Of a stretch of 64,000 nt of DNA, positions 717 through 49,393 are shown one piece after another. The stretch comes from Lachnospiraceae bacterium (GTDB taxonomy: Bacteria > Bacillota > Clostridia > Lachnospirales > Lachnospiraceae): NCBI GenBank assembly GCA_017437965.1, contig JAFRWN010000121.1, positions 10,836 through 74,835 of the forward strand, in the 5' to 3' direction. Numbering within the stretch: position 1 is the stretch's first letter; the number at the start of each line of letters is the position of its first letter. The notes beneath the pieces were generated by a model, which did not search any database, was not told the origin of the DNA, and was given only the letters and a program-made list of their open reading frames with translations. The position numbers and the translations under genes were made by a program.

Positions 717-1673
717 TCACTCATTCTCTTTGTAGTACCCAAGTCTCTTCTCTACGGAATCCAGAAGCCTCTTTCTGATATCCTCAGGCTCATATACTAT
801 CATCGAGCTTCCGTAACTTCTTACCCAAGAATAGAATTTTTCTATTCCGAAAACGTCATCCTCATAGATAATATACCCGTCATGCTTTTCGACATGCCCC
901 TCCGCTCTGTCGCCAAGTTCCCTTTGCACACGCATAACCACTCCGGCCTCATCAAGAATTTTTACCTTTACATGAACCGGAACACCGAATTCCACTCCCC
1001 ATGCCCTGTCATATTTTGTAAATTCCACGTGCTCCTTAGGGGTGCAAATCTCATTTGACGTCCTGCAGTCCTTTATCCTGTCAAAACGGTAAAGTCCTTC
1101 ATCATGACCGACAACATAAATAAAATTATCGTCCACATTATGTATGATCTTCATCGGCCTGATGGTCTTTTTCTGTATTTTCTCTTTGTTTTTATCAAGG
1201 TAACTGAAGCTGACGCTCTTTCCTTTATTCATCCTCTCAGACAGAAAATTTCTTAGCTGTATATCTTCGTCGGAGAAAGAACCGATAGCATTCTTAATGT
1301 AACAGGACTTGCTTTTCTTCACTTTTCTGCCCAATTCATTGTCAAGAAAATCACTGAGCATGGTAAGTTCCTCATTGTCAAGTATCAGCTGCACATTTCT
1401 GCTTCTGGGTCCCTCAAGAAAAAGTCCGGCACACTTATCGAGCCTGCCGTCCTCAAGTTCCTCCCCCGCATCGCGCTCTTCATATTCCTCATCATCACTT
1501 GCATAGTGAAGTGAATAGCCCTGGATATTCTTAAGATCGCGGATTATGGTATCCTCATCGACCTGCATCAGCTCAGTCAGTTCCCTTACCGAAAATCCGT
1601 CGCCATAGTCCTTTGACATCAAGGAAACAAGGGTTGCCATTCTGATAAATTTATTACTTCCGTAACTACTCAT
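717..1673 (-). CDS. HTH-WYL-WCX transcriptional regulator (PafC/BrxR-like)
   Basis: N-terminal HTH (FSVRELTELMQVDEDTIIRDLKNI). WYL-like core (SFSYLDKNKEKIQKKTIRPMKIIHNVDDNFIYVVGHDEGLYRFDRIKD). C-terminal extension (HVKVKILD...SSMIVYEPEDIRKRL). Its start overlaps the upstream gene by 8 nt. Confidence 0.7.
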   Translation of the reverse strand: MSSYGSNKFIRMATLVSLMSKDYGDGFSVRELTELMQVDEDTIIRDLKNIQGYSLHYASDDEEYEERDAGEELEDGRLDKCAGLFLEGPRSRNVQLILDNEELTMLSDFLDNELGRKVKKSKSCYIKNAIGSFSDEDIQLRNFLSERMNKGKSVSFSYLDKNKEKIQKKTIRPMKIIHNVDDNFIYVVGHDEGLYRFDRIKDCRTSNEICTPKEHVEFTKYDRAWGVEFGVPVHVKVKILDEAGVVMRVQRELGDRAEGHVEKHDGYIIYEDDVFGIEKFYSWVRSYGSSMIVYEPEDIRKRLLDSVEKRLGYYKENE

Positions 1674-2940
1674 AAAGGCCCTCCTCCCTGTACTTTTCTA
1701 AGGTACGGTTCAGCGAAAAGACCATTGTTTTCCTTAGTTCTTCCGGCTCACGAACATAAACACTGCTTCCGAATTTTCTTAAGAATCTTGCAAAGTCATT
1801 AAGTCCGCGGATATCGTCCTCATATATATAACCCTTCTCAAATTTACCGTCCGTACAAGAATAAAGTGTCGCATTTTTTCTTTTCCTCAAAAGGTTTTCA
1901 AGTTTCAGTCCGATATTTCCGAAATCCTGGAATTCCACCTTCACATGTACAAGAGGGTCGACCGAAATCTGAAACATTTCCTCAGCCATCCTGAGATATC
2001 GCGGCGATTCAAAGATATCGTTCTTAATGCCCCGGGCAATGCTTATATTCTTTATCTTCATAACATTAAGTATATAATCGAAACCCGCGCCCTCGTTCTT
2101 TCCGATAAGGTAAAGCATATCCCTGTCGGAAAGGTAGACGACAAGTCCGAGCCTGAAAATCATGATTTCACCCTTGTCCCCGTATTCTATTTCAAGTGCA
2201 TAATGCTCATAATCCAGCTCCGACAGTCTGTCGAGCCACTTTTCCACTTCAGGCTTTTTATTCATCCTGTTGCCAAGCACTACGAAATTTTCCCTGTTCT
2301 CCTCACGGTATTCCTCGCCTAGTACAAGGGCAAGCTTTTTTTCAATTTCCTGCAGCTTATCAGAAAATGAATATGACGGCCCGAAGGCATGAAGCCTGTC
2401 AAGAATGTCAAGTGCTTCATCTTCGGAAAGGTTTACATATACAGGCGCCTTCTTTGTCAGCTTATACTCATTCTCCGCAGTCTTCTCAATTATCCCTGCC
2501 GAAATCAACGACCCAAGTGCATTCACAACCGCATTCCTGTATTTCTCTGTCTCCTCGTTTCCGACAAGATCATGCTCATCATAGTGCACGGGCATTATAT
2601 ATTCCATATATTTTCGGGTAAGATGATCGATATTGTAGACCGAGCCCTCCTTCTGAAGTATCAGAAGCAACAGCATTTTGGAAAAATCCGTCTTGTAGGA
2701 ATCCTCGACCGAACGAAGCACCTTATTATCCCTCGCCGAACTTTCCGCAGGAACGGTAAGAGTGTATCCGACTCCCTTTTTATGCCTTGAAATATCATAT
2801 GTTTTGGAAAGTTTTCCTACATCCTTTTTTATGGACTCGGTATCCACCCCATATTTTTCAGCAAGCCATTCCTTGGTTTTCGGACCGCACATAAGGTCTG
2901 CAAGTATCATATCCTGCCTGGTTTTGCCTTCTCCTGCCAT
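1666..2940 (-). CDS. HTH-WYL-WCX transcriptional regulator, paired with 717-1673 (PafB-like)
   Basis: N-terminal HTH (KEWLAEKYGVDTESIKKDVGKL). WYL-like segment (ALEIEYGDKGEIMIFRLGLVVYLSDRDMLYLIGKN). WCX-like end (VHVKVEFQ...SSVYVREPEELRKTM). GGAGG RBS. Confidence 0.65.
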   Translation of the reverse strand: MAGEGKTRQDMILADLMCGPKTKEWLAEKYGVDTESIKKDVGKLSKTYDISRHKKGVGYTLTVPAESSARDNKVLRSVEDSYKTDFSKMLLLLILQKEGSVYNIDHLTRKYMEYIMPVHYDEHDLVGNEETEKYRNAVVNALGSLISAGIIEKTAENEYKLTKKAPVYVNLSEDEALDILDRLHAFGPSYSFSDKLQEIEKKLALVLGEEYREENRENFVVLGNRMNKKPEVEKWLDRLSELDYEHYALEIEYGDKGEIMIFRLGLVVYLSDRDMLYLIGKNEGAGFDYILNVMKIKNISIARGIKNDIFESPRYLRMAEEMFQISVDPLVHVKVEFQDFGNIGLKLENLLRKRKNATLYSCTDGKFEKGYIYEDDIRGLNDFARFLRKFGSSVYVREPEELRKTMVFSLNRTLEKYREEGLYE

Positions 2941-2976: not shown

Positions 2977-4152
2977 TTACAAGGCCAGCATTTTCTCCGA
3001 TATCATCACATCAATATCCCTCGGTACGGGCTGGATTTCAATGGGAAGCCCATTATCCTTCTTAAGATGCCTTGCTGCGCAACATGCCTGGAGTCCGAGT
3101 CCGAGATCCATTATCGGAATCGGATTCCCTGTTCCGACGGACAGGTTTATCGGACTTGCATTCCCGAGCAGGAACACTCTCTTTTCCCCGAACCTGAACA
3201 TTTCGACATTCTTGTCAAGCATTTCCGTGCTGTCTGCTTCTTTTCTCAGGTCATCCGAGTCGATCTCAAAGCCGAAATGCCCGGCATTGCAGAGCATCAC
3301 GCCGTCCTTGAACAGTCTGATATGCTCATTTCGGATAATGTGGAACCTGCCGGTAGCGGTAACGATAACATCTGCCTGAGGAATCAGTTTTTCGAGATCC
3401 ATATCTACCGTATGGCCATCAGCTTTCGCCTTTAAAAGATAGACGGGATCGATGTCATAGACCATGGTATTTGACCCCATTGCACGGAATTTATTCGCTA
3501 TTCCGCTGCCCACATAACCATAGCCGATCTCAAGCACTTTTTTGCCGCCAAGAAGCGTGCTGGTTGCACGCATGAAGCCGTCAACGACCGACTGTCCTAC
3601 GCCGATGGCATTTTCAAGAAGGCGCTTAAGCGGTGAATCATCAATTACTATTATCGGGAAGGTGGGCTTTATTCCTGCATCGTCGATAAGAAGCCTGCCT
3701 GTCCTTGTTTCTTCATTTGCACCAAAAGGCTTCCAGTCCCTTTCTTTTTTGAAGTAGGTTCTTATCAGATTGGAACCGTTGTCCAGAAAAAGATCCGGCT
3801 TTTCCTCCATTACCATCTCAGCGTAACGCTCATGATCCTCGAGAGTATCGTTTTCCTTTGCATAGACCGTGATCTTAGGGTTTGTCGCAAGAAATGCCGC
3901 TGTGTCCTTCTTGGTTGTTCCCAGATTTCCAACGATGGTGATATGTTCCGCTCCTCCGTCAAGGAAGCAGTCGAGCCAGACCGCTGTCTTCGGTTCAACA
4001 TGAAGACAAATACCGATCTTTTTGCCTTCAAATGCCCTTTCTTCGGCAAACTGCCTGCGAAGATCCGCCATTAACGGCATCTGCTCGCGGAACCATCTGA
4101 TTCTTTCTTCACCTGCTTTTGCAAGGGTAATATCATCGATAATTGAATTCAT
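2977..4152 (-). CDS. S-adenosyl-L-homocysteine hydrolase family protein (divergent)
   Basis: AHCY-like layout: LHVEPKTAVW, NEETRTGRL, Rossmann GYGYVGSGIA, VTATGRFHII, AGHFGFEIDSDDL. Several canonical motifs appear substituted (see findings). Confidence 0.7.
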   Translation of the reverse strand: MNSIIDDITLAKAGEERIRWFREQMPLMADLRRQFAEERAFEGKKIGICLHVEPKTAVWLDCFLDGGAEHITIVGNLGTTKKDTAAFLATNPKITVYAKENDTLEDHERYAEMVMEEKPDLFLDNGSNLIRTYFKKERDWKPFGANEETRTGRLLIDDAGIKPTFPIIVIDDSPLKRLLENAIGVGQSVVDGFMRATSTLLGGKKVLEIGYGYVGSGIANKFRAMGSNTMVYDIDPVYLLKAKADGHTVDMDLEKLIPQADVIVTATGRFHIIRNEHIRLFKDGVMLCNAGHFGFEIDSDDLRKEADSTEMLDKNVEMFRFGEKRVFLLGNASPINLSVGTGNPIPIMDLGLGLQACCAARHLKKDNGLPIEIQPVPRDIDVMISEKMLAL

Positions 4153-4184: not shown

Positions 4185-6191
4185 TCAGACTTCAAGTGTT
4201 TCTGTTATCTCAAGAAGCTCTGCTATGTGCTCTGTGGCATGGGCGCTTCTTACATCGGACAACGGTCTTCCTTTAAAATCCGTTTCCATGCGGTACAAAA
4301 ACTGCAGCCAGCCGACAAGCATGATCCTGTTCCTTACTGACGCAAGTTCTTCCTTATCCTTGTCCTCAAAGTATATACGTATGACCTCATTCCATATATA
4401 ATCCGCCGTTTCGGGTGAAACGCCGAGCACTCTTTCGGTATTTCCGGGCTCATCCTCTTCAAAGCACTTATAATTGAAGAACACACCCGCTAGATCAAAC
4501 ACCGCATTTCCGGCCGCCATGGTATCCATGTCTATTATCATCAGCTCGCCGCCCGTGCGGATGATATTGTTCATATGGCAGTCCCCATGTATTGCATTAA
4601 GGCTCTCAGGTACCGCCTCGACGAGCATCTTAAGACGCTCATATTTATCCTCCGGAAGCGTATGTTTTACAGTTTCAACATAACCGATGAACCGCTTTCT
4701 TGCCGAAGGACAGCATCCCTTGTCCATCTTAGTCGAATGCATCAGCTTAAGAAGCGCGGTATAGCTTTCCACCACATTTTTAAGCTCGTCCGGAGAATCA
4801 CAAAGCCACTTTGTACAGGTCGTGGAATCAAGCAGTTCAAACACCGAACCGTACAGATCGCCGACCTTTACGATATCATATGGTATCGCAGTCGGAATAC
4901 CCTTTAAAAATGCCGCCTTCGACAGACGCTGTTCATTCTCTATCATTGCAAGGGCATCACGTGAATTATACACCTTAACGACGGTATCGGCATCAAGCCT
5001 GTAGACCGTACCATAGTACCCTTTTCCGATAACCTCACAGCCGTCTACCGATATTTCCCTCATTTTTTTATGCACGTCAAAGAGTTCCGTAAAGCCTGTC
5101 ATTTCAAATATTTCATAGACATCTCGCGACACATTTTCTATGACAAGGTTCTTTCCGGTTTTCTTTCTTACGCCCATGAGCACCCTGAGGCCCGCACTTG
5201 AAACATAAGTGAGCTCCTGCGCATCAAATACCGGATTTTTCTCTCCTGTCCTTTCAAGGATTTCATCTATCTGCCCGGCAAGTTCCGCTGCATTGTCCGA
5301 ATCTATCCTTCCCTTAAGCGGTATCCGGATACCATCAAGATTTTCAATCACAATATTTTTCTGGAATATACGAAGGTCCGATCTCTTTTCGGCAACTTCC
5401 CTGCAGTAATCCAGTGTTTTCTGCACCTTCTCCGCCGTACTCTCTATCATCGGAGTGATCCTGTCTTCAATCGATTTTGCTCCGATCACTATCTTATCCC
5501 TAAGCACATCTACAGTCCTTATGGACTTGTGTACCGCAAAGCTGTCAATATCCTTCTGCTTTGTAAGGCGTGAAGTATCAAAGAGTAATTCGGGATTTCT
5601 GTTGGCTCCGATATCGATTTCATCGGCAAGACGGATTACCGCAGACAAAAATGCGGTCCTGATCACTCCGTCCTTTGTTTTGATATCGTAATATTCTTTT
5701 TCGTCAAACAGGTCGACTCTTCTGTGACCTCTTGAAATCTGTATAATGGCAAACAACTGCTCTTCTGAAGCGAAATCAAACAATCCTGCATATTTTCTTA
5801 TAAAAACGCCGCTGAATTCATGATGGAATTCCCTGATTATATCTGCATTCTCCATCTCGGGATGGTCCTTACGGTAAGACTCAAGTCCCAGCTCTTTAAG
5901 AAAGATTTCATAATCCTTCTGGTTTATTGTAAGCCCGACGTCGTGAAGATAGCAGGCCATGATCAGCACATAGCACTCCTCCGCACTTAAAAACTCTACC
6001 TGCTGTCCGAGAAGAAGATTGCAATATTCCAGAACATCCATGCTGTGAAGGGCGGAATGGTCCGTAAAATCCGGGAACCATGACAAAAACGACTCCAGCA
6101 TTTTGTTCAGAACCGCCACATTATCCCTCATCTGTCTGTGAAGGGCAGGTGACTGTTCCTTCAGTTTTTTCTCAAGAAGATATTCATTCAT
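4185..6191 (-). CDS. multidomain HD phosphohydrolase - STAS - APH/choline-kinase-like kinase fusion
   Basis: aa 1-~210 form an HD domain (FTDHSALHS...YLHDVG...RLADEID). aa ~280-375 are STAS-like (IPLKGRIDSDNAAEL...LTYVSSAGLRVLMG...FEMTGFTELF). aa ~380-668 are a kinase-like fold (GKGYYGTVYRL..VKVY, HGDCHMNNII, IIDMDT). Confidence 0.65.
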   Translation of the reverse strand: MNEYLLEKKLKEQSPALHRQMRDNVAVLNKMLESFLSWFPDFTDHSALHSMDVLEYCNLLLGQQVEFLSAEECYVLIMACYLHDVGLTINQKDYEIFLKELGLESYRKDHPEMENADIIREFHHEFSGVFIRKYAGLFDFASEEQLFAIIQISRGHRRVDLFDEKEYYDIKTKDGVIRTAFLSAVIRLADEIDIGANRNPELLFDTSRLTKQKDIDSFAVHKSIRTVDVLRDKIVIGAKSIEDRITPMIESTAEKVQKTLDYCREVAEKRSDLRIFQKNIVIENLDGIRIPLKGRIDSDNAAELAGQIDEILERTGEKNPVFDAQELTYVSSAGLRVLMGVRKKTGKNLVIENVSRDVYEIFEMTGFTELFDVHKKMREISVDGCEVIGKGYYGTVYRLDADTVVKVYNSRDALAMIENEQRLSKAAFLKGIPTAIPYDIVKVGDLYGSVFELLDSTTCTKWLCDSPDELKNVVESYTALLKLMHSTKMDKGCCPSARKRFIGYVETVKHTLPEDKYERLKMLVEAVPESLNAIHGDCHMNNIIRTGGELMIIDMDTMAAGNAVFDLAGVFFNYKCFEEDEPGNTERVLGVSPETADYIWNEVIRIYFEDKDKEELASVRNRIMLVGWLQFLYRMETDFKGRPLSDVRSAHATEHIAELLEITETLEV

Positions 6192-8004
6192 TAGCTTCCA
6201 ACTCCGCTGTCAGATTTATGTAAAGGCAATTAGTATTGAAAGTATATATGTATCTGATATCCTTTGCCAGATTCATTACCATGCGTATTCCTATGTTTTC
6301 TTCCGTATCGTCCCTGTGTATTTCATAGTATTTCATAGGGTCGAACTGTTCACAGAAATCCCTCAGGCAAAGTGATATCCTGTTCTTATCGGCATAAAGC
6401 CTGTAATCCACGCATATTCCGGTTTTATTCCGGGGTTTTCCGTGCTCCACTATGTTTCCGGCCATTTCCTCGACAAAAAGAGACATAAGCCTTGCCTGTC
6501 TTGCACTGACACCATGCTCAAGGCAGAACTGCCAAGCCCTTTCACTTTCGCTTACAACATCCTCCATGCTGTATATATGGGCATCTATGTTATCTTCCTT
6601 TCTTCCGCCGAAACCTTTTTCAAGGAACATATAGTCCTCCGTGTGCTTCGGTATGCCGTGGTTTCGTAAGCAAAGATACAAAAACATGCCAAGGATAAGG
6701 ATGACCTTTCCGACAGCCACCGCTGCCATGATGCCTTCAGAACCAAAGATTTTTCCGAGAACTGCTGCCGTGATTATCGGTACAAAAAGGCGTTCTACAA
6801 AGCAAAATATATTTACCATCTTTCTGTTCTGTATTCCCTGCAGATAGTCCTGGTATATCTCGGTAATGCCGTCAAGCGAAAGGCCTAATGCCATGCAGCG
6901 AATACTGAACACGGACAGCCTTGTAACCTCCGGATCGGAGGTATAGATGCCTGCAATGAACGGAGCCGCAAAAAACAGGATTGCTCCGGCTACAAGTGTT
7001 ATCTTCACACAAAGCTTTATTGCATATGTAAAACTTCTTTTAAGTCCTTCCTTGTCGGATGCCCCGTAATACATCGATGACACGGTAAGAAGCGTCCTTC
7101 CGATGCCGATGCTGATACAGAACATCAGCATATTGAGATCGCTCTGCATTCCCTTTGCAGCCACCGCAGCAGTGCTTACTGCGACAACAAGGTTTATCCT
7201 GTTGGTGGCTATATCTCTTATAATTACCGCAAGCTTTTTGACGAAAGAAACTGAGCCGCACTTTACGATATCCCCAAATTCCCCGAAGGTCATTGTCTCA
7301 AGCGAAAACCTGAAGTAACCTTTTTTCCTCACAAAATGCGTCGCCAGTACGGCAAGCTGCAGCCAGATTGATACCGAGGTTGCAAGCCCCATTCCGAAAA
7401 TGTTTCCGTGAAAAACAAAAATATTCAGAAGGTCTCCCGTCACATCCGAAACGCACAGCACTACCGCAGATATCGTTATCAGCTTTTTGCCGTTATCCAT
7501 TACCATGTATGGACTCAGTATCTGCACAAGTATCACTGCGGGGATACCGACAATATATCCCTTCATGTATTTAAGCATATGCTCAAAGATTTCCGGCTGC
7601 CTGCTTCCTTTGATACCGCAGATACGGAACAATACCTCAGGCGCAAATATACAGACAAGCAGGAACAATGCAGCTATTCCGAGGCCGAAAACCACCGAAA
7701 AAGTAAATACCGCATTGGCCTTCTGCCTTTCGCCTTTTCCAATTTTATGGGAACATACTATTTGGCCGCCGATTGATATGAAGCTGGCAAGTAAGAGTAT
7801 GATGTTTACCATCGGTCCCAGAAGGGAAACAGCGGAATATGCATCATGTCCCAGATACCTGCTTGTGATCACACCGTCTATGATATTGGCGATCACGCCC
7901 GTAAGCATCGAAAAAATCATGACGATCGCTGCAGGAAGGAACATACTTGCGATGATATCCTTTTGCTGGTTTTGTTTTAAATTTTCTTCCACTCTGGTTC
8001 CCAT
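6184..8004 (-). CDS. MATE-family efflux transporter with a C-terminal SpoIIAB/RsbW-like HATPase domain
   Basis: About 450 aa of polytopic MATE-like membrane core, then about 135 aa (nt 6184-6597) reading ERAWQFCLEHGVSARQARLMSLFVEEMAGNIVEHGKPRNKTGICVDYRLYADKNRISLCLRD, which resembles anti-sigma serine kinases. It overlaps the next gene by 8 nt. Confidence 0.65.
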   Translation of the reverse strand: MGTRVEENLKQNQQKDIIASMFLPAAIVMIFSMLTGVIANIIDGVITSRYLGHDAYSAVSLLGPMVNIILLLASFISIGGQIVCSHKIGKGERQKANAVFTFSVVFGLGIAALFLLVCIFAPEVLFRICGIKGSRQPEIFEHMLKYMKGYIVGIPAVILVQILSPYMVMDNGKKLITISAVVLCVSDVTGDLLNIFVFHGNIFGMGLATSVSIWLQLAVLATHFVRKKGYFRFSLETMTFGEFGDIVKCGSVSFVKKLAVIIRDIATNRINLVVAVSTAAVAAKGMQSDLNMLMFCISIGIGRTLLTVSSMYYGASDKEGLKRSFTYAIKLCVKITLVAGAILFFAAPFIAGIYTSDPEVTRLSVFSIRCMALGLSLDGITEIYQDYLQGIQNRKMVNIFCFVERLFVPIITAAVLGKIFGSEGIMAAVAVGKVILILGMFLYLCLRNHGIPKHTEDYMFLEKGFGGRKEDNIDAHIYSMEDVVSESERAWQFCLEHGVSARQARLMSLFVEEMAGNIVEHGKPRNKTGICVDYRLYADKNRISLCLRDFCEQFDPMKYYEIHRDDTEENIGIRMVMNLAKDIRYIYTFNTNCLYINLTAELEANE

Positions 8005-8080: not shown

Positions 8081-8116
8081 AACAGAAAACGCCATACCCA
8101 AAAGGGCATGACGTTC
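8081..8116 (-). terminator. rho-independent terminator after groEL
   Basis: Minus strand reads ACGTCATGCCC-TTTT-GGGTATGGCGT followed by TTTCTGTT. Confidence 0.6.
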
Positions 8117-8151
8117 TTCTTTTTCTGTTTCTTATAGGTTTACAAACGATT

Positions 8152-10097
<1,946 letters not shown>

Positions 10098-21480: not shown

Positions 21481-22345
21481 AGGTATCCGCCTTTCCGAGA
21501 TTTATCAGCATATACACCAGATAGCTGAAAAGAAAAACGCCGACATTGCACCGGATAAGGCCCTTAATGTCAAGGTCTTGGTAAATAGTGCTCCCGAGCC
21601 TGTAATAACCGATGTTGACAAGCGTAATGTATGCCTTACTGCCGTTCATAGCCAGGTATACGATGAACCTCTCCCAAAGATGGCACAGCAGGAAAGGCAG
21701 GGATATCACGAAATATATGTTGATGGACAATGACGAGATCAGCAGAGCCGGAATGACTGCAAGAGCCCCGTAGGCAAAGTATCTGACAGCATTTACAAGC
21801 AGCACCGCAGCAATGCTGCCAGTCTTTACCGCCTTACAGTACCATGCAGGGGCAGTATACTCCAGCATCTCATAATAGCCTGCCTGATCCTGAACGCTGA
21901 AGCTTTGTATTCCTGGAAAAGAAAGGCAGATGACAAGTTCCGCAAGCAGGCTTCCGATAATAAGCATTATCCCCCCACAGATGACTGCCGAAAGATACGA
22001 AGCGGAAAAATAATTCTTTTTGCTGACGTGGGGCATGACATATCTCGTAAAGCGGTGCTTTAAATCTTCATTGAGCACCGGTACGAAAGCAAAGGCTGTC
22101 AGTACAGGGACAAACATCATAAGCCAAAGGCTGTCCTTTCCGGCAAGCATCTCCAAGGAATTATAGTTTATGTCATCATCCATTTTGCTCTTATCGATGA
22201 TCATGTCGATCATCGTGATGCTGTCACCGTTAATATCTAACTTGACCACTGCGGCAAGGAGCATCACGCAGACCGCCGCCGAACCCATCCAGAATTTCCA
22301 GTCGGTCAGTGTCCTTACAATATTTGTACGAAGAAGCTTAAACAT
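21470..22345 (-). CDS. ABC-2-type membrane protein (LanE/G-like permease)
   Basis: 291 aa and polytopic. AGGGGA RBS. Confidence 0.65.
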   Translation of the reverse strand: MFKLLRTNIVRTLTDWKFWMGSAAVCVMLLAAVVKLDINGDSITMIDMIIDKSKMDDDINYNSLEMLAGKDSLWLMMFVPVLTAFAFVPVLNEDLKHRFTRYVMPHVSKKNYFSASYLSAVICGGIMLIIGSLLAELVICLSFPGIQSFSVQDQAGYYEMLEYTAPAWYCKAVKTGSIAAVLLVNAVRYFAYGALAVIPALLISSLSINIYFVISLPFLLCHLWERFIVYLAMNGSKAYITLVNIGYYRLGSTIYQDLDIKGLIRCNVGVFLFSYLVYMLINLGKADTCES

Positions 22346-22555
22346 TTATATCCCCTGAAGCCCTCTTATATCTGAAATTTGCACCATCTTTTCCCGACAA
22401 AATGTACCGCATTGTCGTCAAACTTATCAAGCTGTTCCTTGCTGTTTTTTCTTGGATAGCAGCTGCTGTAAAAACCATCTCTCTATCCGGTTCTCTTCAA
22501 CAGTCTCCGAAACCAAAACAGCAATATCAGAAAAACTTACACTTTATTTCAAATT

Positions 22556-22586
22556 TTTTGTGACATTGGGACGTATCCAGTGTCAC
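22556..22586. repeat. 31-nt repeat, copy R2
   Basis: TTTTGTGACATTGGGACGTATCCAGTGTCAC lies about 25 nt 3' of the lipoprotein stop and about 210 nt 5' of the ABC operon start. Confidence 0.7.
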
Positions 22587-22611
22587 AATATCTCCTTTTG
22601 ATTCCACCTCA

Positions 22612-24012
22612 TCACTCCGGAATTTCCTTATAATAGTGAAAGTTTCCTCCGTCCTCCGCATTTACATAGCAGACATAGGTTATTCTGTCATTTTTATTAT
22701 ACAGCGACAGCTTCCATGAAGCCTTTGTTTCAAGACTTAAATCTTCTGGCATGGTTGATTTACCGTTTATGCTTTCAACAAAATACACCAGTTCAACTTT
22801 CCTGAGTTCGAATTCAACCGTCTGTGACATTTCCTTGCTAACAAGCTTTACCGCTTCTGCAGCGCTGATCATGTCGTAGCTTTCCTTTTCGTCAATATAT
22901 CTGAAGCTCACCGGAATATTATAAATGGAGTCCACCTCGAAGCTGTTTATCATGGAACCATAGCAAAAAATCTGATAACCAGAATCACCTTCAGTATAAC
23001 TGCTCGTACCGTTTATCCCGTCAAAGTCTATCCCCTTATATGTTGACGTACATATCATCTGAAGACCTTCCACGCCGTGAAGTTCATAAATGTTCACATA
23101 TTTTACCTTTAGGTCTGCACTTTTATTTTCAATGCATTCCAGAGAATTGATATAGCTTTCAAAAACGGCAACCGCATCCTTGACCTTTACGGTCTTGTCA
23201 AGCATATTTACTTCTTCTTCACTGTCAGCAGGCACCTCTTTCTTAAAGCCCCCAAAGTAACTCAACTGGTCATACGCTTCAAGCATATCCGGAAAATCAT
23301 CATTTTTGAAATGTCTTTTTGCAATAACGCCACGGTTAAAGCGGAACAGCCCGTTGCCCACAGGGCTCTGTGCCTCCATAAATACCTTATCATCACCCTT
23401 ATCCTGATAGATATACATAAAAACCTGTGTCTTATCATCAAAAACCTCATCTTTATAATCTTCAACCAGCGGAATTACAGGTTTTACCAGATTTTTTTCT
23501 TTTATTAGTTCTTCTATCCGCTTTGTAGCTTCTTCTCCTCTGAGTCCTTCTTCATTCCATACATACATTCTTACTTTCTCAGTTTCCTCGCTATACGCAA
23601 GAGAGATTGCATCATATTTTTCCCCCGAAAACATCGTGTACTCAGGCTTGAACTCAACATCCGGGAAGATTTCCGAAAAGCATTTAACGAAATTGTCATA
23701 AGCGTCTTTATTATTCAAAAATGAATGGTATCCGAGATCAAAGGACGGAAGCCCATCAAGTTCTTCCGGCACAGAGACCGTAAATTCCTCCCCGGGTATG
23801 ATATTGGCTACGGTATTTACAGCTTCCATTATGCTTTCTGCGTCCGAAGCAACAATGGATTTTGTAATTTTTTCGTTATTCTTTATTTCTTTTTCTGAGC
23901 TGCTTAGCATATTTTCACTTTCAAAACCGCTGTCGTTTTTTGAACATGATACAATAAAAACACTGGTAACCAAAACAAAGAAAACTGCAATTTTCTTAAA
24001 TATTCTCATCAT
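22612..24012 (-). CDS. hypothetical lipoprotein
   Basis: Start moved to MMRIFKKIAVFFVLVTSVFIVSC (lipobox), with GGAGA 6 nt upstream. I recognise no domain. Confidence 0.6.
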   Translation of the reverse strand: MMRIFKKIAVFFVLVTSVFIVSCSKNDSGFESENMLSSSEKEIKNNEKITKSIVASDAESIMEAVNTVANIIPGEEFTVSVPEELDGLPSFDLGYHSFLNNKDAYDNFVKCFSEIFPDVEFKPEYTMFSGEKYDAISLAYSEETEKVRMYVWNEEGLRGEEATKRIEELIKEKNLVKPVIPLVEDYKDEVFDDKTQVFMYIYQDKGDDKVFMEAQSPVGNGLFRFNRGVIAKRHFKNDDFPDMLEAYDQLSYFGGFKKEVPADSEEEVNMLDKTVKVKDAVAVFESYINSLECIENKSADLKVKYVNIYELHGVEGLQMICTSTYKGIDFDGINGTSSYTEGDSGYQIFCYGSMINSFEVDSIYNIPVSFRYIDEKESYDMISAAEAVKLVSKEMSQTVEFELRKVELVYFVESINGKSTMPEDLSLETKASWKLSLYNKNDRITYVCYVNAEDGGNFHYYKEIPE

Positions 24013-24041
24013 TATGTTTCTCCGTTTTATTCTTAAATATT

Positions 24042-24068
24042 GGGCAGAGATAAAAAATATCTCCGCCC
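24042..24068 (-). other. intercistronic stem-loop
   Basis: Minus strand reads GGGCGGAGATA-TTTTT-TATCTCTGCCC, between the small secreted gene and the lipoprotein gene. There is no clear U-tract. Confidence 0.4.
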
Positions 24069-24102
24069 ACATAAAAAATGTCGAGTAACAATCGCAACAT
24101 GA

Positions 24103-24552
24103 TCAAGGTGTCGATACTATTGTTCCGCTAACAATAGCAGTATTACCGGTCGTACTGGTATATCCTGAAAAATGAAAATCCTGATACTGTGTAATACCGC
24201 TGTAAACAGGTTTGCATTCTACCGAATCGGTATAAACATAGTTATAGTATCCAAGATATTTAACAGACATAGTACCATTATTACTCGTAATAAGAGCCCT
24301 GTAATTTCCGCCCGATACCGTAATCGAGTGACTTGTCATGTATCCCATCGCACCATTTGTAGAATATGCAATTTTTTTATTGGTACTTACATTGGAGCCT
24401 TAAGGTGCACCAGGAACATTTACATATGTCACAGACCATGTTGCACTTGTTGGATAATCCATCATTGCTGCATTTGCAGTTTGAATTCCTACATCTGCAA
24501 GAGCTATAATAGCTGCAAGCAGAATTGCCGTAATCTTTTTTATCGTATTCAT
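24103..24552 (-). pseudogene. small secreted S/T/Y/G-rich protein interrupted by an in-frame TAA
   Basis: ATG at 24552 (GGAG RBS) encodes MNTIKKITAILLAAIIALADVGIQTANA|AMMDYPTSATWSVTYVNVPGAP. A TAA at 24400-24402 follows, and the same frame continues into the 81-aa track ORF (24103-24348). Confidence 0.55.
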
Positions 24553-24626
24553 AGATACTCCATTTCTATAAGCCTTTTGCTTATTTGTAACTTCTATTTT
24601 CAGAACACTACTATAACCGTCAGTAA

Positions 24627-25481
24627 TTAACTCGACTTTATTACTGGCAATTTTTCAACCTGTACCTTTTCACTGGAATATATTTCTTCGAGTTTATATC
24701 TCCAGTGATAAACAACTGGCTCTTCGTTGACTTCCTCAAAGTATTTATAGATGCGCGAAACCAGTTCTTCTTTGGTTTTAACTCGTATGCCTTTTAAAGA
24801 TTGACGAGTCAGCTTGCTGAAGAAACCTTCAACAAGATTCAGCCATGAACCATGCTTGGGTGTGAACACAAATTCAAACCTATCCGGTACTGTAGCAAGA
24901 TATTTTCTTGTTTCATCGGATGTATGAACCTTTAAATTATCAAGTACCAAGCGGATTTTATCACCTTTGGGATATTTTGAGTCAAGCAGCTTAAGGAAAT
25001 CTATGTAATCCTTACTGGTATGAGAATCTCTAACCAATGGTATTGCTTCTCCCGTTTGCAAATCAATTCCGGCAAGGAGAGATATTGTACCAAGTCGTTT
25101 GTACTCATAATCACGACTGATAGTCTTGTGCCTTTCATCAGGAAGAAGATCATCAGATGTTGTTGCAACTGCCTGTATTCCGGGTTTTTCATCATACGAG
25201 ATTGCATGTATGTTCTCACTGTCAGCACAGATGCCGATGTAGTTACCTTTCTCATCGAATTGTAACGAAAGCTGCTTATAAACCAAAAGAACATTATGCA
25301 TCTTCTGATCGAAATCAGGGTCGCGGTTTTCGCAGTAGTATGTTATCTTGTTGGGCTTGATATCTGCCTCTTCAAGAATAGTGTGTACCTTTGACTGACT
25401 TATAGTGGAAAGTCTTATATGACCGGCTTCTTCTGCAAGTATGATAGTGCCGGATTTTTTACCCATGATATGTACCTCCAT
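24627..25481 (-). mobile_element. IS630-family DDE transposase gene, apparently 5'-truncated
   Basis: DDE_3-like core (ISYDEKPGIQA..., VLDNLKVHTS, TPKHGSWLNLVEGFFSKL). It lacks the usual ~80-100 aa N-terminal HTH region. I found no terminal inverted repeats. Confidence 0.7.
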
Positions 25482-25672
25482 ATCCTTATATGTAGGTTAT
25501 ATCATAGATTTGACAAATAGTCTAGTCATTTAAAAACATTTATACTACGAGAACTCATTATCTTATCATTGGATCGTACCTCGCTTTCTATATATTTGCC
25601 CAGGAAATCTTTTTTCATTTCTGAATTTTAAGCATTTCCTTCAGCTTCTCAGGTTTTTCAGGCTGATTCGTT

Positions 25673-25828
25673 TCAGAACCTTTTCTGCTGTTGTTTCAGC
25701 AGCTTTTCCAGCTCCTTGGGTTCAGCAGGCTGATAATAGCCATTTTTCGACGGACTCTTTGCTGTAGTCAATGCAGATTTTTTTGCAGCATTAACTCCCA
25801 AATTTGCTAAAATCTTCTTTAACCTCAT
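25673..25828 (-). CDS. agrD: AgrD-like autoinducing-peptide precursor (51 aa, no cysteine)
   Basis: Not in the ORF track (<60 aa). ATG at 25828 has AAAGGAGG 9 nt upstream. Sequence: MRLKKILANLGVNAAKKSALTTAKSPSKNGYYQPAEPKELEKLLKQQQKRF. It overlaps the agrB 3' end out of frame. The QPxEPKEL tail resembles the conserved AgrD C-terminal region. Confidence 0.6.
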   Translation of the reverse strand: MRLKKILANLGVNAAKKSALTTAKSPSKNGYYQPAEPKELEKLLKQQQKRF

Positions 25829-26513
25829 AACCTAATTCCTCCTTTATTTTTTCTTGTAACGTACCACCATAATCTTCTTTTGTCAACAGGTTTGGCACAA
25901 ACGGTCGTTTTTCCGTCACAAACGGCAAAAAAATATTTTTAATAAGACCTGCAACGAATGCTACATCATTTGATAACAAACTAAAAAGCATTATTATTGA
26001 AGCTTTGTTGGCTCCGTTTAGATACAGCATTTTAGCTATGGCTTCAATAGCAATCAATATAATAAAGCATTGCAGTTTTACTTTTTTTCTCGAAAAAACT
26101 TTTATCAACTTGTTCGGATTAATGATTGGTGCCGCCAACACAATCTCAACAGTCGTTATTATAAAGACAGCTATCTCTGCCGGTTTAATTATATTTCTAA
26201 CCGGCAGAGAAGCAAGCTTCAATACTGCAAATACATTTAGAAATATTAAGACATTACAACGTAAATATGTATTTGCATGATATCCTCCCATCCGACTTCT
26301 TATAATAGTGAAAGTAAAATAAAATACAAAGGCTCCCATTATATCTTTACACATTGTTCCTGATCCCAGAACAACCAAATAATTACATACAGATGAAATA
26401 ATGTTTTCATTTCCGTATTTTATTATCTCATAGTCATTTTTTTGTTCAGGTAAAATCTTTAAATACAAAACAGTCAATTTGTCAGCTATTTGTTCCATCG
26501 TCGGCATTTTCAT
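25791..26513 (-). CDS. agrB: AgrB-family accessory gene regulator peptidase
   Basis: Polytopic, with an AgrB hallmark RSRMGGYHANTYLRC. The start could instead be the second or third Met (GAGAGG RBS). Confidence 0.8.
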   Translation of the reverse strand: MKMPTMEQIADKLTVLYLKILPEQKNDYEIIKYGNENIISSVCNYLVVLGSGTMCKDIMGAFVFYFTFTIIRSRMGGYHANTYLRCNVLIFLNVFAVLKLASLPVRNIIKPAEIAVFIITTVEIVLAAPIINPNKLIKVFSRKKVKLQCFIILIAIEAIAKMLYLNGANKASIIMLFSLLSNDVAFVAGLIKNIFLPFVTEKRPFVPNLLTKEDYGGTLQEKIKEELGYEVKEDFSKFGS

Positions 26514-26524
26514 TTTCCTCTCAC

Positions 26525-26559
26525 ATCAAAAAAACTGTGTACACTTCTGCACACAGTTT
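26525..26559 (-). terminator. rho-independent terminator between the agr kinase and agrB
   Basis: Minus strand reads AAACTGTGTGCAGAAGTGTACACAGTTT followed by TTTTT. Confidence 0.6.
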
Positions 26560-26575
26560 ACAAATAATTTGCCAT

Positions 26576-27934
26576 TCAGTCAACAGGTTTGGCACAAACG
26601 GTCGGGTTTCCGTCATAAACGGTGGAAAGCGGTATGATTATCTCACTTGTAAAGCAATCATTTTCCTCAAAATTACGATAAATACCGTTCATGTTTTTGA
26701 CGTGTTTTTTTATGGCTTTTAATCCAAAGCCGTGATTGGTCTTATCATCTTTATTGCTTTCCTCGCTTACCACATTTTTTGCAACACTTTCGCTGATTCC
26801 GTTTTTCACCCTTATATACAAAAAGGATTCTTCATTGTACAGATCCATTTCAATGTTGTTGGTTCCGTGTTTTTTCATTGCTTCTTCGGAATTCTGCAGA
26901 AGATTCACCAAAATCGATGCTATTACTCTTTCGGAAATACTTCCGAGGAATATTTTTTCAATTCTTAACGATACCACATAGTCATTTTCCTTGAAAATTG
27001 ACAGATAATGCATCAGCACGGCATTAATCAGTATATATCCACTGTCAATCAGATTCTCGTTTTTCAGGCTTTCCTCTGTTTCATTAATAACTTCATCCAG
27101 CTGTCTTTTTGCTTCATCCAGTTGTTTTTGTTTTAGCAGTTCCTGAATTGGAAGGAAAGAGTTTCTTATTTCATGCCTTAAAGACCTTAATTCTTTCTTT
27201 GACTCTTCAATTTCTGTCAAACGGGACATTTCATAATCGGTTTTGATAAGAAAAGAATTTAATTCATAATTTTCCTTTTCTTTATTGTACATATAAAGCA
27301 CAAATGATAATGAAATAAAAGAAAAGATCAAAAGAAGGATAATAAAGCAAAAAAAAAGAATTCTTCTGACAGTTTCATTTTCATTGCCGATGATGGCAAT
27401 TCCCAGATCGGAACACAAAGTAACAAAAAGCATTACCGTACCTTCAGGAACCCAGTTTTTAACGTGATATTTTTTTTCAAGTTTATGTACAGAAAGGAAA
27501 AACGCCAAAGAAAGCAGAAACTGAACAGTTTTTGCAAGAGAAAGAGAAAATACCCTTATATCAGAATCGTTCCGGATTATTGTTTCTGCTATTTCAGCCG
27601 ATGAAATCACCGGCATGAGCAGCATAGTAGCCAATGCAGACAGACTGATAGCCAGTTCAAGCAGCAGTACTTTAGACAGTTTTTCAAAATGTGGTCCTTT
27701 GAAAAAAAGCTCCGCCACAAACATATCCATCAGGATATATATTACCACATCAAAAGTTGTAAATGATTGTAAATGATCAAGAATACCAACGCAAGCAGAA
27801 TTAATACCCACACAAATTATTAACGCCATTAAGCGATATGGCAGCCCATGTTTTTTGGGTATAAGCATAATGCCAAGAAAACCATATTGTATAACTGCCT
27901 CTATGATCGTAGCAGATATTTCAAACGCACTCAT
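26576..27934 (-). CDS. AgrC-like membrane histidine kinase (GHKL)
   Basis: About 200-aa multi-TM sensor, H-box LRSLRHEIRNSF, N-box LVNLLQNSEEA, G-box NHGFGLKAI. The ATGA overlaps the regulator stop. Confidence 0.8.
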   Translation of the reverse strand: MSAFEISATIIEAVIQYGFLGIMLIPKKHGLPYRLMALIICVGINSACVGILDHLQSFTTFDVVIYILMDMFVAELFFKGPHFEKLSKVLLLELAISLSALATMLLMPVISSAEIAETIIRNDSDIRVFSLSLAKTVQFLLSLAFFLSVHKLEKKYHVKNWVPEGTVMLFVTLCSDLGIAIIGNENETVRRILFFCFIILLLIFSFISLSFVLYMYNKEKENYELNSFLIKTDYEMSRLTEIEESKKELRSLRHEIRNSFLPIQELLKQKQLDEAKRQLDEVINETEESLKNENLIDSGYILINAVLMHYLSIFKENDYVVSLRIEKIFLGSISERVIASILVNLLQNSEEAMKKHGTNNIEMDLYNEESFLYIRVKNGISESVAKNVVSEESNKDDKTNHGFGLKAIKKHVKNMNGIYRNFEENDCFTSEIIIPLSTVYDGNPTVCAKPVD

Positions 27935-28656
27935 AAACCTTTTCTCCTGATTTTTTCAATCATCTTTTTTTCTACTTCGTCGCGTCTTCGCCTGCTTATG
28001 GGAGCCTTAAGACCATATTTCATCAAAACATCTCCTCCCACAAAACCGGTAATATATCTGTAATTCACTAAAAATGCCTTATGCGTTTTTATAAAATCAT
28101 TTTTTAACATAAGCTCTTCATAGCTGGCAAGTGAATCTCTTACAGCTATTTCTCCTGCTTCATTTCCGTTATCATAGCGAAACAACAATTTATGACCAAG
28201 TACCTCAAGACATATCAGCTTATCAATGCCGATATATTTTTTTCCGTCTTTTGTCTTCACCTCTATGATTTGACTCTTTTTCCTGAAAGCCTCCAAGAGA
28301 TTATTGATCGCGCGCGGAAAATCGGTGTCCATTTTGGTTTTTCTGACAAATGCTATGGGTTTAATATCGAAAACATTATAGGCATATTCATCATAATCGG
28401 AAACAAATATTATTTCTGCCTTTTCATTGCTCTCCCTGATTTTTCTTGCAACTTCATCCCCATTGGTTCCCGGCATTTCAATATCCAAAAAATATACATC
28501 ATAGTTTTTTGCCGCATGGTTTTCAAGCAGAGAAACAGGATCACTGTACTTATCTATCGTATATGCCTCCGTTTCTCTGCCTGAAAATTCTTTTTTTATA
28601 TTTTGTTCCACTTTTTTGACGATATCTTCCATATCGTCACAGATACATATCTTCAT
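27931..28656 (-). CDS. LytTR-family response regulator (AgrA-like)
   Basis: Receiver domain (MKICICDD...FLDIEMPGTNG) plus a LytTR domain (IEVKTKDGKKYIGIDKLICLEV...IKTHKAFLVNYRYI). Confidence 0.88.
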   Translation of the reverse strand: MKICICDDMEDIVKKVEQNIKKEFSGRETEAYTIDKYSDPVSLLENHAAKNYDVYFLDIEMPGTNGDEVARKIRESNEKAEIIFVSDYDEYAYNVFDIKPIAFVRKTKMDTDFPRAINNLLEAFRKKSQIIEVKTKDGKKYIGIDKLICLEVLGHKLLFRYDNGNEAGEIAVRDSLASYEELMLKNDFIKTHKAFLVNYRYITGFVGGDVLMKYGLKAPISRRRRDEVEKKMIEKIRRKGL

Positions 28657-35956: not shown

Positions 35957-36010
35957 ATGTCATATATCAGCCGGATATGTCATATCCCGGCTCATTATAA
36001 GGAGGCAAGG

Positions 36011-36604
36011 ATGGAAGCCAGAACCGCAACTATTGAAAGAAAAACCAAGGAAACCGACATTTCTCTTACTTTAAACATCGACGGAACCGGAATCTGCGAC
36101 ATCGATACCGGCATTCCTTTCTTCGATCACATGCTCTCGGGCTTTGCAAGGCACGGCATGTTCGACCTCCGCCTTAAATGCAAAGGTGATATCGAGGTTG
36201 ACAGCCACCACACCATCGAGGACTGCGGTATTGTTCTCGGCGAGGCAATAAAAAAGGCACTCGGCGACAAAAAAGCCATCAAACGCTATGGTTTCTTCCT
36301 GCTTCCGATGGACGAAACCCTTGTAATGTGCGCGATCGACATCTGCGGAAGGCCATATTTCAAATATAATCTGAACTTTACAGTGCCGAAGCTCGGCACG
36401 ATGGATACCGAAATGGTAAGGGAATTCTTCTATGCAGTCTCCTACGGTGCGATGATAAACCTGCACCTCAAGGAAATGGACGGTCTCAACAACCACCATA
36501 TTGCAGAGGCAGCCTTCAAATCCTTCGGAAAAGCTCTTGACGTTGCCACCCAGATTGAACCGAGACTCGGCGGCCAGGTATGGTCCACCAAGGGCGTTCT
36601 TTAA
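36011..36604 (+). CDS. hisB: imidazoleglycerol-phosphate dehydratase
   Basis: MEARTATIERKTKETDISL...DSHHTIEDCGI...NNHHIAEAAFKSFG. Start moved to 36011, which has AAGGAGG upstream. Confidence 0.93.
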   Translation: MEARTATIERKTKETDISLTLNIDGTGICDIDTGIPFFDHMLSGFARHGMFDLRLKCKGDIEVDSHHTIEDCGIVLGEAIKKALGDKKAIKRYGFFLLPMDETLVMCAIDICGRPYFKYNLNFTVPKLGTMDTEMVREFFYAVSYGAMINLHLKEMDGLNNHHIAEAAFKSFGKALDVATQIEPRLGGQVWSTKGVL

Positions 36605-36627
36605 AAAATTTTAATAAAAAACGATAA

Positions 36628-36662
36628 TTTGTTGCACTTTTGGTGCACTTGGCGTGTTATAC
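36628..36662 (+). promoter_or_regulatory. conserved motif, copy B (tandem TGCA 11-mers + CGTG); candidate promoter or operator
   Basis: TTTGTTGCACTTTTGGTGCACTTGGCGTGTTATAC aligns with 19554-19587. It overlaps the 5' arm of the hisB terminator hairpin. Confidence 0.4.
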
Positions 36663-36694
36663 TTAATGAAAAAGTTATAACACGCCATTTTTTT
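36651..36694 (+). terminator. rho-independent terminator after hisB, abutting the RBS of the next gene
   Basis: GGCGTGTTATA (36651-61), a 14-nt loop, TATAACACGCC (36676-86), then ATTTTTTT. AGGAGG starts at 36695. Confidence 0.7.
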
Positions 36695-36708
36695 AGGAGG
36701 TAAAAAAC

Positions 36709-47760: not shown

Positions 47761-47774
47761 TTAATTCCAATCCT

Positions 47775-48845: not shown

Positions 48846-49265
48846 TTAAAAATTACCATTTTTTGTATAAGATGAGCTTCCATAATATGAATCACTGGTT
48901 CTCAAATATAATGTATACGAATTATACATTTCTTGACCTGTTAATCCACTATATCTCTTATGTAAAGTGGTAGTTTGACTTTGCTCAGCAAAATGTGTAC
49001 TACTATTCGTTTTGAACAGATATCCTTTACTTATCCATGTGGTAGACGGTGGATTTTGTTCCGTTACGTAACCCTCAATCCCATAATAAGTTACTGTATA
49101 TCCTGAATACGAAACTTGTTCTTTGTAAACATGCTTCTTGACTTTAATAGTACCTGATGTACCTCCTGATGTAGTCTGGTCTTCTTCATTATAATATTGA
49201 ATAGCACTAACTGACGTAACAAGAAGCAGCAATGCCAAACACAATGCGATAACTTTTCTTTTCAT
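48846..49265 (-). CDS. small secreted S/T/Y/G-rich protein
   Basis: Start set at ATG 49265 (GAGAGG 8 nt upstream): MKRKVIALCLALLLLVTSVSA|IQYYNEEDQTTSGGTSG... Confidence 0.6.
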   Translation of the reverse strand: MKRKVIALCLALLLLVTSVSAIQYYNEEDQTTSGGTSGTIKVKKHVYKEQVSYSGYTVTYYGIEGYVTEQNPPSTTWISKGYLFKTNSSTHFAEQSQTTTLHKRYSGLTGQEMYNSYTLYLRTSDSYYGSSSYTKNGNF

Positions 49266-49314
49266 TTTAGACACCTCTCAATATAATAATATTTCGGTTA
49301 ATCCCGATAATTAT

Positions 49315-49343
49315 ATTATATTACATGTTCTATACAAAGTCAA
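49315..49343 (-). promoter_or_regulatory. near-consensus sigma-A promoter for the 49265-43748 operon
   Basis: Minus strand has TTGACT (49338-49343), a 17-nt spacer, then TATAAT (49315-49320). Confidence 0.65.
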
Positions 49344-49393
49344 TCCCCAACTACCAGTAGTGTTTGTGTTTGTGATTAAAAAATCGTGGCTTC

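Follow-up and report, generated by a model that had tools for sequence, protein, structure and literature searches.

Layout of the locus

The subject of this analysis is a pair of adjoining genes in a stretch of 64,000 nucleotides (nt) from a rumen bacterium of the Lachnospiraceae (GenBank assembly GCA_017437965.1, contig JAFRWN010000121.1, positions 10,836 to 74,835 of the forward strand), which as a whole is called the window here and from whose first letter all coordinates are counted. The two open reading frames (ORFs), ORF-A and ORF-B, bring together a membrane transporter of the MATE type and domains resembling those of partner switching, the textbook route of σ factor control. Both lie on the minus strand where a preliminary description of the window had placed them, and the peptides quoted there (LFVEEMAGNIVEHG, YVSSAGLRVL, HGDCHMNNI and IIDMDT) are all present in their translations:

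6184 to 8004, minus strand: ORF-A, 606-amino-acid MATE-type transporter with a C-terminal anti-σ-kinase-like domain (ORF list and translation, Pfam)
4185 to 6191, minus strand: ORF-B, 668-amino-acid fusion of HD-CE, STAS and APH-like kinase domains (translation, Pfam, NCBIfam)
6184 to 6191, minus strand: ATGAATGA, in which the end of ORF-A overlaps the beginning of ORF-B (read from the sequence)

The 8-nt overlap, likewise present as first described, contains the ATG of ORF-B (6191) and the TGA of ORF-A (6184-6186), with a GGAG sequence upstream. In relatives, the junctions between the transporter gene and its partner gene are 2-nt gaps or 4-nt overlaps, and translational coupling of ORF-A and ORF-B is supported. 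The five domains that had been recognized in the two products by inspection (MatE, HATPase_c_2, HD, STAS and APH) were all recovered by searches with profile hidden Markov models (HMMs).

ORF-A, a MATE-type transporter with a conserved C-terminal extension

Three consecutive parts can be distinguished in ORF-A:

6625 to 7968, minus strand: MATE membrane core, residues ~13-460, with about 12 hydrophobic segments (Pfam MatE, TIGR00797)
6595 to 6666, minus strand: linker from the last membrane helix to the tail, residues 447-470, motif P..D.MFL...FGG (alignment)
6187 to 6594, minus strand: SpoIIAB/RsbW-like GHKL tail, residues 471-606 (Pfam PF13581, structural model and fold matches)

The core is matched by Pfam MatE in two stretches (PF01554, E 5e-28, 98.3 bits), and residues 29-421 cover positions 2-389 of the 396 of the TIGR00797 profile at a score of 107.5 bits, under its cut-off of 147.4; a crude hydropathy scan resolves 11 clear membrane segments plus an amphipathic one. 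ORF-A thus resembles MATE exporters such as NorM, DinF, MepA and FepA in its Pfam MatE match and in a TIGR00797-type core of about 12 helices, but its family differs from them in an extra regulatory tail of 135 residues, and ORF-A itself falls far below the cut-offs of all MATE equivalogs of NCBIfam (FepA, MepA, PRK09575, GntT). Neither ORF-A nor ORF-B matches Sulfate_transp, the membrane domain being MatE and the STAS domain residing on the soluble protein.

The fusion of core and tail is widespread. A single word-indexed search returned 186 clusters of ORF-A homologues, nearly all of 580-615 residues and with identities down to 43%, most of which carry both Pfam domains according to precomputed assignments. 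When 1.84 billion cluster representatives, one for each cluster at 50% identity, were searched with a profile of the tail, 3326 proteins matched at E<=1e-3 and 1070 at E<=1e-10; among the best 150 of the 3326, the tail is C-terminal in all, and full-length members measure 560-610 residues. At the species level, genomes with MATE-HATPase proteins belong to Lachnospiraceae, Oscillospiraceae, Selenomonadales, Erysipelotrichaceae, Synergistaceae, Spirochaetes, Coriobacteriia and Cloacimonadaceae, and come almost without exception from rumen or gut samples. The MATE-HATPase fusion is therefore not an artefact but the hallmark of a large, conserved family that spans several phyla of rumen and gut bacteria, as the preliminary description had assumed in treating it as genuine. 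Database entries label its members as "ATP-binding protein" or give a two-part automatic name, and nothing further. In four loci (L021, L024, L031 and L061), two MATE-HATPase genes of different subtypes occur together, in tandem or convergently, and the second copy of L021 has a solo STAS gene of its own.

That assembly or frameshift errors produced such fusions, or that the neighbouring genes lie together without functional meaning, is an explanation to be weighed for any unusual architecture, all the more so as most relatives of ORF-A derive from metagenome-assembled genomes. For ORF-A it is already refuted: the same architecture is present in hundreds of independent assemblies, including that of Butyrivibrio sp. 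NC3005, which carries no metagenome label in its record.

The linker is itself conserved. Among 24 members with identities down to 43%, F465 and G466 never vary and P452, D457, M459 and L461 hardly do, a pattern that favours a mechanical connection of the tail to the transporter over a loose tether.

The tail: kinase or docking module

Residues 494-594 of ORF-A (nt 6223-6525) match HATPase_c_2 with an E-value of 8.2e-08 and 32.7 bits, against a gathering score of 27.4; the tail by itself matches PF13581 at E 3.9e-09, and so do 19 of 20 family tails. An AlphaFold2 (AF2) model of the tail, with a predicted local distance difference test score (pLDDT) of 87.2, finds its best PDB fold match in SpoIIAB (1th8_A, E 2.9e-06, template modelling (TM) score 0.70, Foldseek), followed among the top matches, whose TM scores range over 0.63-0.70, by RsbW 6m36/6m37 and UsfX 8ih8, 8jzt. 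SpoIIAB (1th8), RsbW (6m36) and UsfX (8ih8) are anti-σ proteins whose structures were solved with STAS partners. Against an HMM of the small soluble HATPase_c_2 proteins encoded in related cassettes (see below), the tail gives an E-value of 3.9e-18, and it most likely arose by fusion of a soluble HATPase_c_2-type gene to a MATE gene.

Two nucleotide-binding motifs are readily located:

6439 to 6471, minus strand: N box EEMAGNIVEHG, residues 512-522, aligned with its counterparts in SpoIIAB/RsbW and the soluble kinases
6337 to 6366, minus strand: variant G1 box LRDFCEQFDP, residues 547-556, with Asp549 kept and Cys551 in place of the first glycine

In the Bergerat fold, the glycines of the G1 and G2 boxes line the ATP site of GHKL enzymes, and the motif set of the tail is incomplete in precisely these positions. 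The N box is intact, E513 and N517 being invariant in the family and H521 and G522 nearly so; however, the clade of ORF-A has a G1 box of the form RD(F/Y)CExFDP and a G2 region ENIGI, so that the first glycine of each is gone. The soluble kinases of the same cassettes (IDAGLPFDP and IGGLGI) and the tails of a far clade (RDNGKPFDP and ASGLGI) keep both glycines; SpoIIAB and RsbW sequences served as references in the G1/G2 alignment. The type of G1 box is moreover associated with the neighbourhood of the gene. Glycine occupies the position in 25 of 80 tails, without a single adjacent STAS gene (0/25), cysteine in 48 of 80, with an adjacent STAS gene in 14 of 48, and other residues (S, H, Q or F) in the remaining 7, with one adjacent STAS gene (1/7). 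Every STAS-linked tail in the sample is thus of a non-glycine type (Fisher p = 0.0015, uncorrected for phylogeny).

The loss of the G1 and G2 glycines, together with the canonical kinase that relatives encode as a gene of its own in their cassettes, makes a docking role likelier than a catalytic one. Judging from its motifs, the tail is more likely a nucleotide-dependent docking module than the main kinase, and the conserved N box suggests that it still binds nucleotide. Bound nucleotide is known to govern the affinity of SpoIIAB for SpoIIAA, and UsfX, reported to be an anti-σ factor without kinase activity, would be a precedent for a GHKL domain confined to docking. The alternative is that the tail is itself an active serine kinase that phosphorylates Ser332 of ORF-B in the manner of SpoIIAB and SpoIIAA, so that the state of the exporter is written onto the STAS enzyme. 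Such a role would fit the invariance of E513/N517 and Asp549 across the family, a fold closest to the active kinases SpoIIAB and RsbW, the location of Ser332 at the acceptor position, the translational coupling of the two genes and the failure of custom models to find another HATPase_c_2 domain in the window. It is nevertheless rather unlikely, given that Cys551 replaces the first G1 glycine and the first G2 glycine is lost (ENIGI), that soluble cassette kinases and far-clade tails retain both, and that relatives encode a canonical kinase separately. Of the anti-σ-kinase-like tail originally proposed, then, the fold stands, with SpoIIAB, RsbW and UsfX as its nearest structures, while standard kinase function has become unlikely.

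Two cysteines of the tail may be mentioned here as a separate observation. Cys551, which occupies the place of the G1 glycine, is encoded by nt 6352-6354; Cys494 (nt 6523-6525), in an FC motif of the first tail helix, is nearly invariant in glycine-type and cysteine-type tails alike. Should the two lie near each other in the fold, they might form a redox or metal site.

ORF-B, a rare fusion of widespread parts

Three domains follow one another in the product of ORF-B:

5394 to 6077, minus strand: HD-CE phosphohydrolase domain, residues 39-266 (PF24391, E 4e-36)
5061 to 5351, minus strand: STAS domain, residues 281-377 (PF01740, E 1.4e-11; PF13466; TIGR00377), with the Ser332 codon at 5196-5198
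4188 to 5036, minus strand: APH/choline-kinase-like domain, residues 386-668 (PF01636, E 1.3e-13, residues 386-579)

The STAS domain is the part by which ORF-B can be compared with partner-switching proteins. It passes the TIGR00377 (ant_ant_sig) model with 54.8 bits against a cut-off of 53.45, and its best PDB match by sequence is SpoIIAA (1th8_B, E 4.9e-07), in which the serine of DSSGL lies opposite Ser332; the serine had thus been correctly assigned to the SpoIIAA phosphorylation position. The position is a serine in 117 of 117 STAS-APH homologues, and the acceptor serine is kept in all 22 of the STAS domains examined from MATE-HATPase loci.

The two enzymatic domains on either side appear intact. 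In HD-CE (AF2 model pLDDT 88.6), the metal-binding residues H45, H49, H83, D84, H123, H156 and D190 are invariant in 38 homologues; a sequence search of the PDB with this domain gave noise, and a fold search gave remote matches only (a PPX/GppA domain and cyclic-nucleotide phosphodiesterases). The APH-like domain, to judge by its residues, keeps all catalytic elements of the protein-kinase-like fold, namely the glycine loop IGKGYYGTVY, Lys406, H535-G-D537, N542 and D554, which are retained in 116-117 of 117 homologues. Its best NCBIfam match is TIGR02172 (E 5.7e-25, 88.5 bits, under the cut-off of 228.2 bits), the family after which the Joint Genome Institute (JGI) has named some homologues. 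A literature search on HD-CE, TIGR02172 and the combination of MatE with HATPase_c_2 found nothing relevant.

Two weak matches concern the HD-CE region. Its residues 118-198 (window 5600-5840) match positions 799-876, in the C-terminal part, of the PADLOC model RT_UG24 (DRT) at E 4.8e-07, which suggests that this reverse-transcriptase family has an HD module related to HD-CE. An HMM of the APH domain built from STAS-APH homologues, in turn, gives a weak second match to residues 34-281 (5350-6090; i-Evalue 2.3e-05) and also picked out the HD-CE proteins that stand alone in L006 and L008, possibly as an artefact of helical composition.

The three-domain form of ORF-B is represented by four clusters (98, 82, 67 and 52% identity), whose members stem from separate assemblies in ENA, Logan and NCBI, so that the fusion is real but young. 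Its C-terminal two thirds commonly occur as a STAS-APH protein of 390 residues (>3300 clusters), and its N-terminal third as a stand-alone HD-CE protein of 286 residues (659 clusters); ORF-B is a rare secondary fusion of genes that are separate in relatives and that, as separate genes, neighbour the transporter elsewhere. The HD-STAS-kinase architecture had therefore been described correctly, although it is not the typical form of the partner. The rarity of the form would be an argument for an assembly error in ORF-B, but such an origin, or a meaningless adjacency of the two genes, is next to negligible in probability, since the architecture recurs at four levels of identity in separate assemblies and the adjacency recurs across phyla in differing gene orders.

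Gene linkage and cassettes in relatives

Linkage was surveyed with custom HMMs in 80 species-level loci, within the flanks stored for each; in L003, L010 and L059, genes were taken as stop-to-stop ORFs with HMM matches. A STAS gene, either solo or fused to APH, adjoins the transporter gene in 15 of the 80 loci, an APH-only gene in 8 and HD-CE alone in 2. Within the clade at >=60% identity to ORF-A, STAS-APH and/or HD-CE genes are present in 10 of 10 evaluable loci, and STAS adjacency extends to distant members (L057, 34% identity; L077, 27%; L080, 28%). The linkage of the transporter to STAS-bearing genes, proposed from the window by itself, is thus borne out in relatives. The order of the linked genes varies, but their spacing is tight, with gaps of a few bases or overlaps: STAS-APH and then HD-CE follow the transporter in L002, L003, L010, L056 and L084, whereas in Butyrivibrio sp. 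NC3005 (L041) HD-CE precedes STAS-APH, which is the order that would give rise to the ORF-B fusion.

Several relatives encode more of a partner switch than the window does. The cassette of L098 comprises STAS, STAS-APH, MATE-HATPase, HD-CE, dCache_1-SpoIIE and HATPase_c_2 genes, and L084, L041 and L057 have similarly full cassettes with a solo STAS, a dCache_1-SpoIIE protein and a soluble HATPase_c_2 protein. The PP2C phosphatase and the canonical kinase of these cassettes point to a fuller partner switch than is visible in the window. Solo STAS proteins without an enzyme domain adjoin the transporter in L004, L009, L017, L021, L041 and L080. In Ruminococcus flavefaciens, STAS-APH follows STAS, HATPase_c_2 and dCache_1-SpoIIE genes with no MATE gene nearby, which indicates that STAS-APH is a regular component of partner switches. 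When 85 neighbouring proteins, drawn from 14 STAS-linked loci, were scanned with Pfam and recurrence was judged among 25 of 82 families listed, the recurrent signalling families were STAS (13), APH (10), HD-CE (3), HATPase_c_2 (3) and SpoIIE (2).

A σ factor, on the other hand, was not encountered, in agreement with the preliminary description. No sigma family is among the 25 of 82 families listed for these neighbours; no sigma-factor Pfam domain occurs among the called genes within 10 kb of ORF-B in a contig of the same species (L081), nor among those within 7-10 kb in the loci L081, L084, L091, L097 and L098. In the 64-kb window, custom models of limited sensitivity recovered no second STAS or HATPase_c_2 domain and no PP2C.

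These data also bear on another explanation, according to which the genes are merely co-located in one pathway: the APH-like and HD-CE enzymes would modify a small molecule moved by the MATE transporter, and the STAS domain and the tail would each have other partners, encoded elsewhere. It would account for the loci in which an APH-only or HD-CE-only gene follows the transporter without STAS (L027, L030, L031, L067, L006, L008 and L091), for the full conservation of the kinase active site in the APH-like domain, and for the occurrence of STAS-APH with soluble partner-switch proteins where no MATE gene is nearby. It would, however, leave unexplained why the transporter family has kept an anti-σ-type domain and a conserved linker, why solo STAS genes lie beside the transporter in the six loci named above and why STAS adjacency goes with the G1 type of the tail, and it is considered distinctly improbable.

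A proposed σ-free partner switch with a transporter as output

With modest confidence, the two genes are read as a compact partner-switching cassette that dispenses with a σ factor and has a membrane transporter as its output. The identity of the domains, the reality of the fusion, the fold, the gene linkage and the state of the motifs are established by the data above; what follows on binding, direction of control, substrates and the role of phosphorylation we infer. The tail of ORF-A, as a probable descendant of small STAS binders of the SpoIIAB/RsbW type, would serve as the STAS-binding partner. The STAS domain of ORF-B, when unphosphorylated, would dock on it, and docking would either gate transport or keep the HD-CE and APH-like enzymes at the transporter. 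Whether Ser332 is phosphorylated would depend on a GHKL kinase and a PP2C phosphatase, namely a canonical soluble HATPase_c_2 protein and a dCache_1-SpoIIE protein (dCache_1 being an extracellular sensor domain), as in the cassettes of relatives; in this genome, their genes would presumably lie outside the window.

A number of results weigh against such a cassette. Searches of the 64-kb window with the same custom models found no PP2C phosphatase and no canonical kinase. A profile of the tail found no match among PDB sequences at E up to 1, so that its fold is taken from modelling, and in view of the strict conservation of E513, N517 and D549 the tail could yet prove to be an active kinase. 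Some two thirds of the loci surveyed at species level are without a partner gene in the stored flanks, some of their contigs being short; in these searches, STAS-APH proteins (>3300 clusters) and HD-CE proteins (659 clusters) are far more numerous than the transporter family, and they are often found without the transporter. Finally, in some lineages an HD-CE or APH-only gene follows the transporter without any STAS gene, indicating that the link between enzyme and transporter does not always depend on STAS.

The component families are already known, and so are σ-independent switches. With SpoIIAB-SpoIIAA and RsbW-RsbV of Bacillus, the proposed cassette shares a GHKL domain of the HATPase_c_2 family, a STAS domain with a serine at the acceptor position and, in related cassettes, a PP2C phosphatase of the SpoIIE family; unlike in those systems, no σ factor is seen, the GHKL domain forms the C-terminal end of a 12-helix transporter, two enzymes enclose the STAS domain and the G1 glycine is a cysteine. 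UsfX of Mycobacterium tuberculosis, an anti-sigma-F factor with the antagonists RsfA and RsfB, offers a further parallel, in that an anti-σ fold binds STAS proteins, but it is soluble and sequesters a σ factor. A precedent for a σ-independent arrangement is the partner-switching-like module All4160/HenR/Alr3423 of Anabaena, in which kinases phosphorylate an enzyme-fused STAS domain and the phosphatase HenR reverses this, in direct control of the enzyme (bioRxiv 10.64898/2026.04.08.717354). The enzyme of All4160 is a glycosyltransferase (PMC8256260), as opposed to the HD and APH pair of ORF-B, and the abstract of the preprint describes no transporter fusion (bioRxiv 10.64898/2026.04.08.717354). 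In SLC26/SulP transporters, a C-terminal STAS domain is paired with a membrane transporter (PMC8256260); there, STAS is fused to the transporter, whereas here the transporter carries the candidate STAS-binding partner and STAS is on a separate protein. Literature searches turned up no report of a transporter that bears an anti-σ-type domain. The earlier statement that no characterised example was known accordingly stands for the transporter fusion, but not for a switch acting on a STAS-fused enzyme, for which All4160 provides one.

A bolder version of the σ-free cassette, tentative although not far-fetched, would have the transporter take the place of the σ factor altogether. In it, dCache_1-SpoIIE would sense a ligand outside the cell and thereby set the phosphorylation of STAS domains, which in their unphosphorylated form would dock on the kinase-dead, cysteine-substituted tail; docking would switch transport on or off within seconds or couple modification of the substrate by the STAS-linked kinase and hydrolase to its export, and the system would have spread by horizontal transfer among at least five phyla of rumen bacteria.

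Genomic surroundings

The gene order of the window is the same in contigs of Lachnoclostridium sp. UBA3775, a metagenome-assembled genome. Upstream of ORF-A, the groEL gene ends at 8152, and a strong terminator-like hairpin stands between the two:

8086 to 8117, minus strand: terminator-like hairpin after groEL, with a stem of 14 bp and a T run behind it, bounding the transcription unit on its upstream side

Downstream, no terminator-like hairpin lies between ORF-B and the next gene, which begins 32 nt further on the same strand (2977-4152, minus) and encodes a short AdoHcyase-like protein of 391 residues (PF05221, AdoHcyase_NAD). This neighbour is kept only in the same-species contigs L081-L083. 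In L091 and L092, the transporter gene comes after a sulfate-assimilation operon (PAPS reductase, CysN/APS kinase, sulfate ABC transporter and Inositol_P phosphatase), and together the two observations may hint at a sulfur or adenosine-nucleotide theme.

Other companions recur in parts of the family. The glycine-type genes of the far clade (L064-L078, ~28-31% identity to ORF-A) are flanked by large AMP-binding proteins of 945-1282 residues, some with a fused esterase domain, and by an MFS_2 transporter, with no STAS, APH or HD-CE gene in the flanks. In a middle clade (L014, L017, L018, L034, L027, L031 and L067), the neighbours are a pair consisting of a xylose-isomerase-like TIM-barrel protein (AP_endonuc_2, ~265 residues) and a protein with PAS and adenylate/guanylate cyclase domains (~445 residues).

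Elsewhere in the window, two adjoining WYL/WCX-type regulator genes (717-2940, minus strand; 424 and 318 residues, with an 8-nt overlap) match PADLOC WYL models (E 4e-11 and 1.4e-19), one of them also a Cas3c model; no defence genes were identified beside the pair. G+C content falls to 0.33-0.40 at 22001-28000 and 44001-50000, compared with 0.43-0.50 elsewhere, and at 36001-42000 the AT skew flips to about +0.2, which suggests a block of plus-strand genes; these regions could represent islands or a change of gene orientation.

Two other roles were considered for the locus as a whole. A defence role was dropped, PADLOC giving no defence match for ORF-A and only the weak local HD-CE/RT_UG24 match for ORF-B. 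An antibiotic-resistance island combining APH with efflux was rejected, as no resistance equivalog came near its cut-off and STAS-APH proteins lie in signalling clusters.

Significance

If the bolder version of the cassette holds, a signal from outside the cell would reach efflux post-translationally, without any need for transcription. Recent work extends partner switching to the direct control of enzymes, and a transporter-borne anti-σ-type domain would extend it further to membrane transport; at the same time, the tail would be the first dedicated cytoplasmic regulatory domain of MATE proteins. The split of the ATP site from glycine to cysteine, together with its link to STAS adjacency, amounts to a natural experiment in the conversion of a kinase into a docking module, and since Butyrivibrio sp. 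NC3005 carries the full cassette, the idea is directly testable, provided that the strain can be obtained. In the sample at hand, this large family is confined to rumen and gut anaerobes of several phyla, where it may matter for the way in which these communities handle metabolites, signals or toxic plant compounds.

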